Of a stretch of 64,000 nucleotides of DNA, positions 31,983-47,525 are shown one piece after another; position 1 is the first letter of the stretch; each line of letters opens with the position of its first letter. The translations under genes and the position numbers were made by a program. Below the pieces are notes generated by a model that saw nothing but the letters and a program-made list of their open reading frames with translations, was not told the origin of the DNA and made no database searches. Source of the DNA: Escherichia coli (GTDB lineage Bacteria; Pseudomonadota; Gammaproteobacteria; Enterobacterales; Enterobacteriaceae); the NCBI RefSeq assembly GCF_048403405.1, contig NZ_CP183129.1. One strand, given 5' to 3'.

Positions 31983-32161
31983 GGTGTGGCCTCTTTGCTC
32001 GGTGATAGAAATAACTCACCATCCAGAGTTGAGAATCTCGGGGTGGCGAGACGTACAGGGTTCTCAACACCGGAGAGCAAAGAATCCGGCCCGACCGAAG
32101 TCGGCCCCGTACGCCCCGCCATAATTCTGACGCGAAAAAGACGTGGCAATACAGTACGCAC

Positions 32162-41512: not shown

Positions 41513-42781
41513 ATGATTATCAAACGCACTCCTCAAGCCGCGTCGCCTCTGGCTTCGTGGCTTTCTTATCTGGAAAACCTGCACAGTAAAACTATCGATC
41601 TCGGCCTTGAGCGCGTGAGCCAGGTCGCGGCGCGTCTTGGCGTCCTGAAACCTGCGCCATTTGTGTTTACCGTTGCGGGTACGAATGGCAAAGGCACCAC
41701 TTGCCGTACGCTGGAGTCGATTCTGATGGCGGCAGGGTACAAAGTGGGCGTCTACAGTTCGCCGCATCTGGTGCGTTATACCGAGCGCGTACGTGTGCAG
41801 GGCCAGGAATTGCCGGAATCGGCCCACACCGCCTCTTTTGCGGAGATTGAATCGGCACGCGGTGATATTTCCCTGACCTATTTCGAGTACGGTACGCTGT
41901 CGGCGTTGTGGCTGTTCAAGCAGGCACAACTTGACGTGGTGATTCTGGAAGTAGGGCTGGGCGGTCGTCTGGACGCAACCAATATTGTCGATGCCGATGT
42001 CGCGGTAGTAACCAGTATTGCGCTGGATCATACCGACTGGCTGGGGCCAGATCGCGAAAGTATTGGTCGCGAGAAAGCAGGTATCTTTCGCAGCGAAAAA
42101 CCGGCAATTGTCGGTGAGCCGGAAATGCCTTCTACCATTGCTGATGTGGCGCAGGAAAAAAGTGCACTGTTACAACGTCGGGGCGTTGAGTGGAACTATT
42201 CCGTCACCGATCATGACTGGGCGTTTAGCGATGCTCACGGCACGCTGGAAAATCTGCCGTTGCCGCTTGTCCCGCAACCGAATGCCGCAACGGCGCTGGC
42301 GGCACTGCGTGCCAGCGGGCTGGAGGTCAGTGAAAATGCCATTCGCGACGGGATTGCCAGCGCAATTTTGCCGGGACGTTTCCAGATTGTGAGCGAGTCG
42401 CCACGTGTTATTTTTGATGTCGCGCATAATCCACATGCGGCGGAATATCTCACCGGGCGTATGAAAGCGCTACCGAAAAACGGGCGCGTGCTGGCGGTTA
42501 TCGGTATGCTACATGATAAAGATATTGCCGGAACTCTGGCCTGGTTGAAAAGCGTGGTTGATGACTGGTATTGTGCGCCACTGGAAGGGCCGCGCGGTGC
42601 CACGGCAGAACAACTGCTTGAGCATTTGGGTAACGGCAAATCATTTGATAGCGTGGCGCAGGCATGGGATGCCGCAATGGCGGACGCTAAAGCGGAAGAT
42701 ACCGTGCTGGTGTGTGGTTCGTTCCACACGGTCGCACATGTCATGGAAGTGATTGACGCGAGGAGAAGCGGTGGCAAGTAA
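41513..42781 (+). CDS. folC: Dihydrofolate synthase / folylpolyglutamate synthase
   Basis: 422 aa, GTNGKGTT P-loop. Confidence 0.95.
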   Translation: MIIKRTPQAASPLASWLSYLENLHSKTIDLGLERVSQVAARLGVLKPAPFVFTVAGTNGKGTTCRTLESILMAAGYKVGVYSSPHLVRYTERVRVQGQELPESAHTASFAEIESARGDISLTYFEYGTLSALWLFKQAQLDVVILEVGLGGRLDATNIVDADVAVVTSIALDHTDWLGPDRESIGREKAGIFRSEKPAIVGEPEMPSTIADVAQEKSALLQRRGVEWNYSVTDHDWAFSDAHGTLENLPLPLVPQPNAATALAALRASGLEVSENAIRDGIASAILPGRFQIVSESPRVIFDVAHNPHAAEYLTGRMKALPKNGRVLAVIGMLHDKDIAGTLAWLKSVVDDWYCAPLEGPRGATAEQLLEHLGNGKSFDSVAQAWDAAMADAKAEDTVLVCGSFHTVAHVMEVIDARRSGGK

Positions 42782-43421
42782 GTTTCAGAATCGGTTAGTG
42801 GGCACGATCGTGCTGGTGGCGCTGGGGGTGATTGTACTTCCAGGGCTGCTGGACGGGCAGAAAAAACATTATCAGGATGAGTTCGCGGCTATCCCGCTGG
42901 TGCCGAAAGCGGGCGATCGCGATGAGCCTGATATGATGCCAGCCGCCACCCAGGCGTTGCCGACGCAGCCGCCGGAAGGCGCAGCGGAAGAGGTGCGGGC
43001 AGGTGATGCCGCAGCACCGTCGCTCGATCCGGCCACTATTGCAGCCAATAACACCGAGTTTGAACCGGAACCTGCACCGGTCGTCCCACCGAAGCCGAAA
43101 CCGGTGGAGCCGCCTAAGCCGAAGGTTGAAGCACCACCTGCGCCGAAGCCGGTCGTGGAAGAAAAAGCAGCGCCAACGGGTAAAGCCTATGTTGTACAAC
43201 TGGGCGCACTGAAAAATGCCGATAAAGTGAATGAGATTGTCGGTAAGCTGCGCGGTGCCGGTTATCGGGTTTATACGTCGCCATCCACGCCAGTGCAGGG
43301 TAAAATTACCCGTATTCTGGTTGGGCCAGATGCCTCGAAAGATAAGCTGAAAGGTTCGCTGGGTGAGTTGAAGCAACTTTCTGGCTTAAGTGGCGTGGTA
43401 ATGGGCTATACGCCGAATTAA
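42771..43421 (+). CDS. dedD: Cell division protein DedD (SPOR domain)
   Basis: GTG start (VASKFQNRLVGTIVLVALG); Pro/Lys-rich linker; overlaps the folC stop. Confidence 0.9.
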   Translation: MASKFQNRLVGTIVLVALGVIVLPGLLDGQKKHYQDEFAAIPLVPKAGDRDEPDMMPAATQALPTQPPEGAAEEVRAGDAAAPSLDPATIAANNTEFEPEPAPVVPPKPKPVEPPKPKVEAPPAPKPVVEEKAAPTGKAYVVQLGALKNADKVNEIVGKLRGAGYRVYTSPSTPVQGKITRILVGPDASKDKLKGSLGELKQLSGLSGVVMGYTPN

Positions 43422-43430
43422 TACGGTCTT

Positions 43431-43612
43431 GCCTGATGCGACGCTGGCGCGTCTTATCAGTCCTACGCAGGAGTAGAACCGTAGGTCGAATAAGGCGTTC
43501 ACGCCGCATCCGACAGCCGTTGCCTGATGCGACGCTGGCGCGTCTTATCAGGCCTGCGCAGGGGTAGAACCGTAGGTCGAATAAGGCGTTCACGCCGCAT
43601 CCGACACGCATT
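43431..43612. repeat. Tandem REP/BIME-type extragenic palindromic repeats (two ~90-bp units)
   Basis: GCCTGATGCGACGCTGGCGCGTCTTATCAGGCCT... unit repeated at 43431-43520 and 43522-43611. Confidence 0.7.
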
Positions 43613-43698
43613 GCCCGATGCCGCAAAGGCATAAAAAGTCGATGGCGTTGAATATTTTTTCAGCGCCATTTTTATTGATGCGTGGGAAGGAAATCCCT

Positions 43699-43714
43699 AC
43701 GCAAACGTTTTCTT
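43699..43714. promoter_or_regulatory. PurR operator (PUR box) upstream of cvpA-purF
   Basis: ACGCAAACGTTTTCTT matches the PUR box consensus; -10-like TTAGAAT follows. Confidence 0.5.
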
Positions 43715-43770
43715 TTTCTGTTAGAATGCGCCCCGAACAGGATGACAGGGCGTAAAATCGTGGAACACAT

Positions 43771-44259
43771 ATGGTCTGGATTGATTACGCCATAATCGCG
43801 GTGATTGCTTTTTCCTCTCTGGTTAGCCTGATCCGCGGCTTTGTTCGTGAAGCGTTATCGCTGGTGACATGGGGTTGTGCTTTCTTTGTTGCCAGTCATT
43901 ACTACACTTACCTGTCAGTCTGGTTTACGGGCTTTGAAGACGAACTGGTTCGAAATGGGATTGCCATCGCGGTACTGTTTATCGCTACCCTGATTGTTGG
44001 TGCTATCGTGAACTTCGTGATAGGCCAGTTGGTGGAGAAAACGGGGTTGTCAGGCACCGATCGGGTGCTGGGCGTCTGTTTCGGTGCGTTGCGCGGTGTG
44101 TTGATTGTTGCCGCCATTCTCTTCTTTCTCGACTCCTTTACCGGGGTGTCGAAAAGCGAAGACTGGAGCAAATCACAGCTGATCCCGCAGTTCAGTTTTA
44201 TCATCAGATGGTTTTTTGATTATCTGCAAAGCTCGTCAAGTTTCTTGCCCAGAGCGTAA
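43771..44259 (+). CDS. cvpA: Colicin V production membrane protein
   Basis: 162 aa, hydrophobic; upstream of purF. Confidence 0.9.
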   Translation: MVWIDYAIIAVIAFSSLVSLIRGFVREALSLVTWGCAFFVASHYYTYLSVWFTGFEDELVRNGIAIAVLFIATLIVGAIVNFVIGQLVEKTGLSGTDRVLGVCFGALRGVLIVAAILFFLDSFTGVSKSEDWSKSQLIPQFSFIIRWFFDYLQSSSSFLPRA

Positions 44260-44295
44260 GTGCTCTGAGATGTGGCTTAACGAGGAAAAAGACGT

Positions 44296-45813
44296 ATGTG
44301 CGGTATTGTCGGTATCGCCGGTGTTATGCCGGTTAACCAGTCGATTTATGATGCCTTAACGGTGCTTCAGCATCGCGGTCAGGATGCCGCCGGCATCATC
44401 ACCATAGATGCCAATAACTGCTTCCGTTTGCGTAAAGCGAACGGGCTGGTGAGCGATGTATTTGAAGCTCGCCATATGCAGCGTTTGCAGGGCAATATGG
44501 GCATTGGTCATGTGCGTTACCCTACGGCTGGCAGCTCCAGCGCCTCTGAAGCGCAGCCGTTTTACGTTAACTCTCCGTATGGCATTACGCTTGCCCACAA
44601 CGGCAATCTGACCAACGCTCACGAGTTGCGTAAAAAACTGTTTGAAGAAAAACGCCGCCACATCAACACCACTTCCGACTCGGAAATTCTGCTTAATATC
44701 TTCGCCAGCGAGCTGGACAACTTCCGCCACTACCCGCTGGAAGCCGACAATATTTTCGCTGCCATTGCTGCCACAAACCGCTTAATCCGCGGCGCGTATG
44801 CCTGCGTGGCGATGATTATCGGCCATGGTATGGTTGCTTTCCGCGATCCTAACGGGATTCGTCCGCTCGTACTGGGAAAACGTGATATTGACGAGAACCG
44901 CACAGAATATATGGTCGCTTCCGAAAGCGTTGCGCTCGATACACTAGGCTTTGATTTCCTGCGTGACGTCGCGCCGGGCGAAGCGATTTACATCACTGAA
45001 GAAGGGCAGTTGTTTACCCGTCAATGTGCTGACAATCCGGTCAGCAATCCGTGCCTGTTTGAGTATGTATACTTTGCTCGCCCGGACTCGTTCATCGACA
45101 AAATTTCCGTTTACAGCGCGCGTGTGAATATGGGCACGAAGCTGGGCGAGAAAATTGCCCGCGAATGGGAAGATCTGGATATCGACGTGGTGATCCCGAT
45201 CCCGGAAACCTCGTGTGATATCGCGCTGGAAATTGCTCGTATTCTGGGCAAACCGTACCGTCAGGGCTTCGTTAAAAACCGCTATGTAGGCCGTACCTTC
45301 ATCATGCCGGGTCAGCAACTGCGTCGTAAGTCCGTGCGCCGTAAACTGAACGCCAACCGCGCCGAGTTCCGCGATAAAAACGTCCTGCTGGTCGACGACT
45401 CCATCGTCCGTGGCACCACTTCTGAGCAGATTATCGAGATGGCACGCGAAGCCGGAGCGAAGAAAGTGTACCTCGCTTCTGCGGCACCGGAGATTCGCTT
45501 CCCGAACGTTTATGGTATTGATATGCCGAGCGCCACGGAACTGATTGCTCACGGTCGCGAAGTAGATGAAATTCGCCAGATCATCGGTGCTGACGGGTTG
45601 ATTTTCCAGGATCTGAACGATCTGATCGAAGCCGTTCGCGCTGAAAACCCGGATATTCAGCAGTTTGAGTGTTCGGTGTTCAACGGCGTCTACGTCACCA
45701 AGGATGTTGATCAGGGCTACCTCGATTTCCTCGATACGTTACGTAATGACGACGCCAAAGCAGTGCAACGTCAGAACGAAGTGGAAAATCTCGAAATGCA
45801 TAACGAAGGATGA
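44296..45813 (+). CDS. purF: Amidophosphoribosyltransferase
   Basis: 505 aa, N-terminal MCGIVGI. Confidence 0.95.
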
Positions 45814-45907
45814 TGCCTTCGCTCAGGGTGCCGGTCTGGCACCCTGACTTGCAACTCCCGCCGAAATCCTGCAAAGTCTGCCTGCAAGTCTGACAGGGCA
45901 ACTATTT

Positions 45908-46477
45908 ATGAAACGACTTATTGTGGGCATCAGCGGTGCCAGCGGCGCGATTTATGGCGTGCGCTTATTACAGGTTCTGCGCGATGTCGCAGATGTTGAA
46001 ACGCATCTGGTAATGAGCCAGGCCGCGCGCCAGACCTTATCTCTTGAAACGGATTTTTCCCTGCGCGAAGTGCAGGCATTAGCCGATGTGACGCACGATG
46101 CGCGCGATATTGCTGCCAGCATTTCTTCCGGTTCTTTCCAGACACTGGGGATGGTGATTTTACCCTGTTCAATCAAAACCCTGTCCGGCATTGTCCATAG
46201 CTATACTGATGGCTTACTGACCCGTGCGGCAGATGTGGTGCTGAAAGAGCGTCGCCCGTTGGTGCTCTGCGTACGTGAAACACCATTGCACTTAGGCCAT
46301 CTGCGTTTAATGACTCAGGCAGCAGAAATCGGTGCGGTGATTATGCCTCCCGTTCCGGCGTTTTATCATCGCCCGCAATCCCTTGATGATGTGATAAATC
46401 AGACGGTTAACCGTGTACTCGATCAATTCGCCATAACGCTTCCTGAAGATCTCTTTGCCCGCTGGCAGGGCGCATAA
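45908..46477 (+). CDS. ubiX: Flavin prenyltransferase
   Basis: 189 aa, MKRLIVGISGASGAIYG. Confidence 0.9.
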   Translation: MKRLIVGISGASGAIYGVRLLQVLRDVADVETHLVMSQAARQTLSLETDFSLREVQALADVTHDARDIAASISSGSFQTLGMVILPCSIKTLSGIVHSYTDGLLTRAADVVLKERRPLVLCVRETPLHLGHLRLMTQAAEIGAVIMPPVPAFYHRPQSLDDVINQTVNRVLDQFAITLPEDLFARWQGA

Positions 46478-46489
46478 CTCCGCTGTTGC

Positions 46490-46516
46490 CCTGTTTCAGG
46501 GCAATTTTGCAACCGC
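46490..46516 (+). terminator. Intrinsic terminator after ubiX
   Basis: TTGCCCTG-ttt-CAGGGCAA followed by TTTTG. Confidence 0.4.
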
Positions 46517-46658
46517 GATCAAATCCTCGACATTTTGTTCCTTTCGATGAATCGAAACGCTGCGATTCAACCGCCATACCTGCTATCTTCAACTTCAGGA
46601 CAATAATGCAACGTCTTATTAACATATTTAACGTTGAATGTTACTGCTGTCGTAAAGA

Positions 46659-46675
46659 TGGCATAAGACCTGCAT
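46659..46675 (+). promoter_or_regulatory. Candidate sigma-54 promoter of argT
   Basis: TGGCAT-N5-CTGCA with GG and GC elements spaced as in the -24/-12 consensus. Confidence 0.45.
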
Positions 46676-46742
46676 GAAAGAGCCTGCAAACACACAACAC
46701 AATACACAACATAAAAAAGCCATTTTCACTTGAGGGTTATGT

Positions 46743-47525
46743 ATGAAGAAGTCGATTCTCGCTCTGTCTTTGTTAGTCGGTCTCTCCGCAGCGGCTTCCA
46801 GCTATGCGGCGCTACCGGAGACGGTACGTATCGGAACTGATACCACCTATGCGCCGTTCTCATCGAAAGATGCCAAAGGTGACTTTGTTGGCTTTGATAT
46901 CGATCTCGGTAACGAGATGTGCAAACGGATGCAGGTGAAATGTACCTGGGTTGCCAGTGACTTTGACGCGCTGATCCCCTCACTGAAAGCGAAAAAAATC
47001 GACGCCATTATTTCGTCGCTTTCCATTACCGATAAACGTCAGCAGGAGATTGCTTTCTCCGACAAGCTGTACGCCGCAGATTCTCGTTTGATTGCCGCCA
47101 AAGGTTCGCCGATTCAGCCAACGCTGGATTCACTGAAAGGTAAACATGTGGGTGTGCTGCAGGGATCAACCCAGGAAGCTTACGCTAACGAGACCTGGCG
47201 TAGCAAAGGCGTGGATGTGGTGGCCTATGCCAACCAGGATTTGGTCTATTCCGATCTGGCTGCAGGACGTCTGGATGCCGCACTGCAGGATGAAGTGGCG
47301 GCCAGCGAAGGTTTCCTCAAGCAACCAGCCGGTAAAGAGTTCGCTTTTGCTGGCTCATCAGTGAAAGACAAAAAATACTTCGGTGACGGTACCGGTGTAG
47401 GGCTACGTAAAGATGATGCCGAACTGACGGCTGCCTTCAATAAGGCGCTTGGCGAGCTGCGTCAGGACGGCACCTACGACAAGATGGCGAAAAAGTATTT
47501 TGACTTTAATGTCTACGGTGACTGA
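46743..47525 (+). CDS. argT: Lysine/arginine/ornithine periplasmic binding protein
   Basis: 260 aa with signal peptide; paralog of the downstream hisJ. Confidence 0.9.

Follow-up and report, generated by a model that had tools for sequence, protein, structure and literature searches.

Three regulatory elements can be read from a single region of the Escherichia coli chromosome—tandem REP/BIME units after dedD, a PUR box before cvpA-purF, and a sigma-54-type promoter before argT—and the question that the locus raises is whether these are the standard equipment of a conserved region, or whether any of them sets this strain apart. All three lie in the window, by which we mean the whole 64,000-nucleotide stretch of DNA that was analysed. 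The best explanation, to which we assign a probability of roughly 0.93, is that they are three independent, already-characterised elements of the conserved dedD-cvpA-purF-ubiX-argT region.

The setting is that of the core chromosome. Six complete E. coli chromosomes match positions 42700-47000 at 100% identity, and 5,425 of 5,426 complete genomes match at least 80% of this stretch, nearly all at 95–99% identity. The gene order across the matched stretch, dedD-cvpA-purF-ubiX-argT, is also that of the K-12 annotation, which runs hisP-hisM-hisQ-hisJ-argT-ubiX-purF-cvpA-dedD-folC-accD-dedA. The genes concerned, all present in both the open reading frame list and the RefSeq annotation, are these:

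42771-43421, + strand: dedD (cell division protein DedD), with a TAA stop at 43419-43421
43771-44259, + strand: cvpA
44296-45813, + strand: purF
45908-46477, + strand: ubiX
46743-47525, + strand: argT (lysine/arginine/ornithine periplasmic binding protein), first in argT-hisJQMP

In NZ_CP128875.1, a 100%-identical record, RefSeq annotates dedD at 1671579-1672229, which maps to 42771-43421 of the window. The preliminary description had taken the right half of the window for ordinary core genome, and the K-12 gene order bears this out. Collinearity of the whole window with NZ_CP128875.1 was considered and rejected, as it is true of the right part only; a P2-family prophage adjoins pdxB in the left half of the window, and NZ_CP128875.1 carries no such annotation there. 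No tRNA was found in the 64-kb window.

The first of the three elements, the tandem REP/BIME that had been described after dedD, proves to be a pair of BIME-2 units at 43429-43610. The two 91-nt units are 93% identical, and TRF and a second repeat finder agree on them. In each, a Z2 palindromic unit (PU) comes first and a Y PU in inverted orientation second, giving the array order Z2-Y-Z2-Y:

43429-43519, + strand: BIME-2 unit 1, with a Z2 PU at 43431-43466 (last bases CTAC), joined through a tail-to-tail linker of 14 nt to a Y PU at 43481-43515 (first bases GTAG)
43520-43610, + strand: BIME-2 unit 2, with a Z2 PU at 43522-43557 and a Y PU at 43572-43606

The Z2 start of each unit, TTGCCTGATGCGACGCTGGCGCGTCTTATCAG(G/T)CCT(A/G)C, matches the Z2 consensus at 97–100% (E down to 6e-15), and the inverted Y part, GTAGGTCGAATAAGGCGTTCACGCCGCATCCGACA, matches the Y consensus at 94% (E = 1e-9), in blastn-short comparisons with the two consensus sequences (E = 6e-15 to 1e-9). 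The foot tetranucleotides are CTAC at 43463-43466 and GTAG at 43481-43484 and 43572-43575; the fourth foot, that of the Z2 PU in unit 2, is CTGC (43554-43557), one substitution from CTAC. The PU stems are imperfect, with internal mismatches: in unit 1 a G>T at 43461 leaves the Z2 PU with a shorter stem, and both Y stems carry an A-C mismatch. By alignment, unit 2 is the counterpart of the single unit of K-12.

By the definition of Ton-Hoang et al. (2012, PMC3333891), BIME-2 elements combine Z2 and Y with short linkers, stand in tandem copies, and differ from strain to strain in copy number at a given locus. The array in the window has Z2 and Y PUs alternating in inverted orientation, the foot tetranucleotide, a variable number of tandem copies, and an extragenic position, between the dedD stop (43421) and the cvpA start (43771). 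It also belongs to a high-copy dispersed family; queries containing it match a median of 11–13 places per E. coli genome, and up to 32. Regular expressions and blastn-short found no other REPs in the 64-kb window, and the RefSeq K-12 record used lists no REP features. Neither a CRISPR-like array nor a tandem repeat within a coding sequence explains the segment, the units being palindromic REPs with no unique spacers. The open reading frames listed there, 43306-43632 and 43499-43669 on the - strand, owe their existence to the repeat and are artefacts.

What is particular to the window is the number of units. K-12 carries exactly one, with a dedD-cvpA spacer of 258 nt versus 349 nt in the window and a clean 91-nt gap in the alignment. 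Spacers of 167, 258, 349, 440 and 531 nt correspond, in exact 91-nt steps, to 0, 1, 2, 3 and 4 units. Allele frequencies come from a single sample, evenly spaced, of 60 among the 5,431 records that matched, and six loci were read over their whole length:

0-unit allele: about 3% of the 60-record sample
1-unit allele: about two-thirds of the sample (39 rows)
3-unit allele: about one-sixth of the sample
4-unit allele: about 8% of the sample

Internally deleted units of 71 nt (locus L008) and 68 nt (locus L130) also occur. The flanks are constant in every allele: on the left, the 7-nt TACGGTC (TACGGTT in locus L009), and on the right, a 160-nt segment that starts TTGCCCGATGCC and whose first 11 nt resemble the unit start, TTGCCTGATGC. 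The part of this flank that adjoins the array is fixed and is still present in the 0-unit allele; it holds a small hairpin, ATGCC/GGCAT (-7.1 kcal/mol):

43611-43632, + strand: right flank of the array, TTGCCCGATGCCGCAAAGGCAT

Of the 5,426 complete genomes, only the six that rank highest carry exactly this two-unit allele, which was absent both from the next 54 best matches and from the 60-record spread sample; the type strain of E. albertii also has two units, of 90 and 91 nt. The description of the units as tandem is allele-specific: K-12 has a single unit, and the two-unit form is rare among complete genomes. An A at 43489, and again at 43580 (GTCGAAT vs GTCGGAT), is common to the two Y PUs of the window and absent from 17 other sampled units; this points to duplication or homogenisation within the lineage of the window, and the rare two-unit allele probably arose or was homogenised there. 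Gain and loss of units by a REP-associated transposase, by slippage, or by unequal recombination between 91-nt units could have generated the series of 0–4 units. Copy-number variation of this kind at the dedD locus is known, published behaviour of BIME-2.

The array starts 9 nt past the dedD stop codon and lies upstream of an intrinsic terminator recovered by the terminator scan, and its four PUs can therefore be taken as part of the 3′ UTR of the folC-dedD mRNA:

43641-43677, + strand: intrinsic terminator of the folC-dedD transcript, with a 12-bp stem and a 6-nt loop, then TTTTTATT

The terminator folds at -18.0 kcal/mol (z = -5.7). Single PUs fold at -11.9 to -21.4 kcal/mol; the hairpins of unit 1 lie at -14.9 (Z2) and -11.9 kcal/mol (Y), and the Z2 hairpin of unit 2 at -21.4 kcal/mol (z = -4.1). 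The entire dedD 3′ UTR folds at -117 kcal/mol (z = -4.85). Cross-species alignment indicates that the terminator hairpin upstream of the PUR box is kept in other genera with changes on both arms, the arm pairs being GGCGTTGAA/TTCAGCGCC, GGCGATTGTTG/AAAATCGCC and GGGCAATTCC/GGAATTGCCC, each followed by a T run. A REP within 15 nt of a stop codon is reportedly a cause of ribosome stalling (Liang, Rudd and Deutscher are said to have described this in 2015), and with only 9 nt separating the dedD stop from the first Z2 stem, dedD translation might be affected, an idea that we give as a lead only.

The segment between the dedD stop and the terminator varies by lineage. It consists of BIME-2 in E. 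coli and E. albertii; of a single, different REP in Citrobacter werkmanii; and of tandem palindromes of the CCCTCTCCC...GGGAGAGGG type in Enterobacter and Pseudocitrobacter, with about seven units in locus L066. Such lineage-specific content is in line with earlier descriptions of palindromic units that differ between species and occupy conserved positions.

The junction between the two units has a further property, a match to the Rfam naRNA4 model:

43484-43554, + strand: Y-linker-Z2 head-to-head pair over the junction of units 1 and 2, matching naRNA4 (RF02564)

The match scores 75.1 bits against a gathering threshold of 59.5 (E = 1.8e-11), and checks the Z2 and Y assignments independently of the blastn-short comparisons. 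The threshold is passed because the two-unit junction makes a Y-GCCGTT-Z2 pair on the transcribed strand, and the model was built on the Y-linker-Z2 repeats of REP325; the single-unit locus of K-12 stays below threshold, at 38 bits at most. The linker at the junction is the short GCCGTT, with 6 nt deleted relative to the 13-nt 'l' linker of REP325, and the match departs in this respect from REP325 itself. A role in HU binding and in the nucleoid has been proposed for the naRNA4 of REP325 (PMC4550694), and a 2026 preprint disputes it (bioRxiv 10.64898/2026.03.23.713779). Given the shorter linker and the disputed role, we read the match as the Y-linker-Z2 pair of a BIME-2 array and do not take it to indicate a functional sRNA; such pairs seem to be what the Rfam model picks up in BIME-2 arrays generally.

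What, then, might the array do? On the RNA, four GC-rich hairpins would most likely act as a local modulator within the 3′ UTR, one that bars the way to 3′ exonucleases and partly blocks readthrough into cvpA-purF, and the role of the array would most likely be one of modulating dedD mRNA stability and cvpA-purF readthrough locally. REPs have been described as terminators and stabilisers in 3′ UTRs (bioRxiv 10.64898/2026.03.23.713779); their effects in published work are context dependent, and mRNA half-life is not uniformly affected. As DNA, BIME-2 elements have been reported to be targeted by gyrase and to serve as substrates for the REP-associated transposase. A tenable reading, which we nevertheless hold to be clearly the less probable, is that the array is selfish or neutral DNA without host function, which found a landing site in a permissive 3′ UTR and whose unit number has drifted since. 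The coexistence in one species of alleles with 0–4 units and of deleted 71- and 68-nt units speaks for this reading, as do the unrelated palindromic arrays at the same position in other genera and the substitutions that weaken stems in several PUs of the window (43461, 43489, 43580). Drift sits less easily with the retention of exactly one intact unit in about two-thirds of the sampled genomes, or with published genome-wide data that tie REPs to a bias toward expression of the upstream gene.

Rather unlikely, in our estimation, is a role mainly at the level of DNA, with the array serving as a site of gyrase binding and cleavage that relieves supercoiling between folC-dedD and cvpA-purF, and the RNA hairpins being incidental. 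In its favour, in vivo cleavage by gyrase has been reported for the BIME-2 class (Espeli and Boccard 1997, cited in PMC3333891), and the array sits between two co-oriented transcription units. However, the sequence does not separate this from an RNA-level role, the two can hold at once, the 0-unit allele in natural isolates makes the array dispensable, and recent work favours local effects on the transcript (bioRxiv 10.64898/2026.03.23.713779). Far more speculative is the idea that unit number forms a heritable tuning knob, in which an naRNA4-like RNA module, present from at least two units upward and missing from the common one-unit allele, could alter dedD mRNA stability, PurR-independent readthrough into cvpA-purF, or HU binding differently from strain to strain. 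The same idea makes the terminator region a preferred target of REP-type elements, which it might be given that the 3′ UTR holds unrelated palindromic arrays in other genera; we regard the proposal as a whole as very improbable. Local modulation from the dedD 3′ UTR is the most likely role of the array, although computation on the sequence does not separate it from the DNA-level and neutral readings.

The second element, a PUR box before cvpA-purF, was found as described, 43714 being its last base. It is followed after 7 nt by a likely -10 hexamer and ends 56 nt before the cvpA ATG (43771):

43699-43714, + strand: PUR box (PurR operator) of the cvpA-purF-ubiX operon, ACGCAAACGTTTTCTT, an exact match
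43722-43727, + strand: TAGAAT, the likely -10 hexamer of the cvpA-purF promoter, as read from the sequence

The box has 0 mismatches and is the sole site in the window at up to 3 mismatches, a count that is not above chance, with 0.85 sites expected at that stringency. The box can be accepted as real not because of the number of sites, but because it is exactly identical to the K-12 operator and conserved across species. By alignment, the box and promoter are identical to K-12. The box, an imperfect palindrome, corresponds on the opposite strand to AAGAAAACGTTTGCGT, which PurR ChIP-chip lists as the motif for cvpA-purF-ubiX in K-12 (Cho et al. 2011, PMC3159470).

Conservation was assessed by scanning one genome per species for ACGCAAACGTTTTC-N9-TAGAAT, which matched in at least 120 species genomes; the first 80 of these loci were examined for cvpA and dedD as neighbours. 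A cvpA homologue starts 29–167 nt downstream in 77 of the 80, at a modal distance of 44 nt, as in E. coli, and dedD lies upstream in 75. Of the three loci without a cvpA match, two end too early and one is a chance match in a Eubacterium metagenome-assembled genome. The matches span the Enterobacterales (Escherichia, Providencia, Photorhabdus, Yersinia, Dickeya, Pantoea, Plesiomonas) and include two Pasteurellaceae. The nine unspecified bases between box and hexamer, together with the T before the box, are at least 90% conserved across species; the box and TAGAAT are invariant by construction, and since the box served as the search pattern, the comparison covers only species in which it has not diverged.

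From the placement of the PUR box 7 nt before the -10 hexamer, we infer that the operator covers the -35/spacer region in a geometry of occlusion, although the cvpA promoter was not called by the sigma-70 scan and its -35 hexamer is poor. The 16-bp box would bind PurR loaded with hypoxanthine or guanine, and PurR bound over the -35/spacer region would exclude RNA polymerase from the cvpA-purF promoter. PurR binding at this box is presumed from the literature on the identical K-12 sequence. The downstream end of the operon is putatively marked by a hairpin after ubiX, which would close cvpA-purF-ubiX, and which the terminator scan, with its demand for a longer T run, missed:

46485-46509, + strand: terminator-like hairpin after ubiX, TTGCCCTG TTTC CAGGGCAA, then TTTT (-15.1 kcal/mol, z = -3.3)

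The third element precedes argT in the correct orientation, its core ending 69 nt before the ATG:

46659-46674, + strand: sigma-54 promoter core of argT, TGGCATAAGACCTGCA, with TGGCAT (-24) and CTGCA (-12)

The core has GG and GC at the canonical spacing of TGGCAC-N5-TTGCW, with 2 mismatches outside GG/GC, and the predicted transcription start, near 46685, leaves about 58 nt of leader before the ATG at 46743. As a consensus match the site does not stand out. Sites with up to 2 mismatches number 34 in the window, versus 47 expected in shuffles, and the best match to the NtrC site TGCACC-N5-GGTGCA within 220 nt upstream reaches 8/12, a level common in the window. Both results are what one would see if 46659-46674 were a chance match and argT were transcribed from another promoter. 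Yet that reading has next to no probability in our judgement, as the core equals the 17-mer ATGGCATAAGACCTGCA, the sigma-54 ChIP-seq site assigned to argT (b2310) in K-12 (Bonocora et al. 2015, PMC4591121), and is matched at every base by the Salmonella LT2 argT site TGGCATAAGACCTGCATG, where argT responds to sigma-54 in microarray and ChIP-chip data (Samuels et al. 2013, PMC3844500). Its orientation and distance from the argT ATG also argue against chance, and in reporter assays argTp was sigma-54-dependent and the strongest of a panel of sigma-54 promoters (PMC7045595).

Other published data converge on the same promoter. Genomic SELEX, which selects genomic DNA fragments in vitro, gave a peak for RpoN holoenzyme in the argT-ubiX spacer (PMC8743547), in NtrC ChIP-seq the peak at argT was weak and that at hisJQMP stronger (PMC4066584), and a review describes the argT sigma-54 promoter as activated by NtrC (PMC6640053). 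The element is therefore accepted for where it lies and for the binding that has been published for its exact sequence. At this promoter the sigma-54 holoenzyme would bind as a closed complex, which NtrC would open under nitrogen limitation; for the window, binding of both proteins is projected from literature on identical sequences. The sigma-54-type promoter noted before argT is thus confirmed through identity with the K-12 ChIP-seq site. Of the tests that the preliminary description had proposed, consensus matching would not have been decisive for the sigma-54 element, whose match is not above chance; comparison with K-12 regulatory sites succeeds, the PUR box with its promoter and the argT core being identical to K-12.

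All three elements are already known, and the two-unit allele and its naRNA4 match are minor strain-level details. The value of the elements is mainly that of an anchor: the window from 36.6 to 64 kb is core chromosome with its standard regulatory sites intact, so that anything out of the ordinary would have to come from other parts, such as the P2-family prophage of the left half. The rare two-unit BIME-2 allele is the only strain-specific feature. It could serve as a typing marker, and it adds a further example of the known copy-number polymorphism of BIME-2.

Each element can be set beside a known system. The junction pair resembles naRNA4 of REP325 (Qian et al. 2015, PMC4550694) in being a two-hairpin Y-linker-Z2 unit on the transcribed strand that scores above the gathering threshold; it differs in that the window has one pair versus six in REP325, and a linker 6 nt shorter. 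Within the BIME-2 family of the Bachellier/Gilson classification, the array is alike in its alternating Z2 and Y, short linkers, 3′ UTR site and tandem variable units, with no essential difference; only the CTGC foot, the G>T at 43461 and the A-C mismatches set it apart. The argT sigma-54 promoter, reportedly described in Salmonella by Schmitz et al. in 1988, has the same core in the window as in E. coli K-12 and Salmonella LT2; the sequence downstream of the core is identical to K-12 throughout, and upstream the window differs from K-12 by nine substitutions, 4 to 120 nt from the core. The PurR operator of purF, which Rolfes and Zalkin are said to have described in 1988, recurs here without difference, as the same 16-bp sequence in the same position relative to cvpA.

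Both Y units in the window carry A at the equivalent positions 43489 and 43580, where all 17 of the other units sampled from E. coli and E. albertii carry G, and the resulting A-C mismatch weakens the Y stem. This shared substitution suggests that the two BIME units of the window, in the dedD 3' UTR, were duplicated or homogenised within their own lineage. Units with internal deletions were also recovered at the dedD-cvpA loci of two other genomes, parts of Z2 and/or Y having been lost in both:

L130 41423-41657, strain EC476: 68-nt unit, internally deleted
L008 573-901, isolate DCE7: pair of units of 91 and 71 nt, the 71-nt unit internally deleted

In Citrobacter, Enterobacter, and Pseudocitrobacter (loci L012, L017, L066, and L084), the position that the BIME units take up in the window, after the dedD stop codon and before the conserved terminator, is occupied by unrelated, lineage-specific palindromic repeats, some of them in tandem, with about seven units in Pseudocitrobacter faecalis and three in Enterobacter sp. 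ENT03.

One noncoding RNA model is matched across the junction of the two units:

43484-43554, + strand: Rfam naRNA4 match, above threshold

The threshold is passed here only because two BIME units adjoin; the one-unit K-12 allele scores 38 bits at most. Given this dependence on adjacent units, the Rfam family appears to be a general detector of Y-linker-Z2 pairs in BIME-2 arrays.

In the left half of the window, pdxB is adjoined by an integrated P2-family prophage, for which NZ_AP027419.1 is the top complete-genome match (99.5%); the interval 14001-39000 is covered at ≥80% in just 251 of 5,426 genomes. Matches to C4 antisense RNA and isrK are neighbors within the early region of the prophage. 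The features are as follows:

about 2000-36400: prophage genes (tail sheath/tube, tape measure, baseplate, capsid, terminase, portal)
about 2000-36400: other genes (ParM-like segregation gene, replication endonuclease, Cox, repressor-like HTH protein, integrase)
32039-32126, - strand: C4 antisense RNA, Rfam match, 78.5 bits
32162-32236, - strand: isrK Hfq-binding RNA, Rfam match, 63.1 bits

A genomic SELEX survey of the RpoN holoenzyme in K-12 reported a weak peak (31-32%) in the cvpA-dedD spacer, besides one in the argT-ubiX spacer (Shimada et al., 2021; PMC8743547). No convincing sigma-54 motif was seen in the corresponding spacer of the window (43422-43770), the two-mismatch matches nearest to it lying within dedD on the opposite strand; nor was a cvpA-dedD site found in the text of the Bonocora ChIP-seq paper (PMC4591121). 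Upstream of the argT promoter, six clustered substitutions separate the window from K-12 at 46540-46556 (CCTTTCGATGAA in the window vs. TCTGCCATTCAA in K-12). The cluster and the sigma-54 core are ~110 nt apart, a spacing that might be compatible with an enhancer site.
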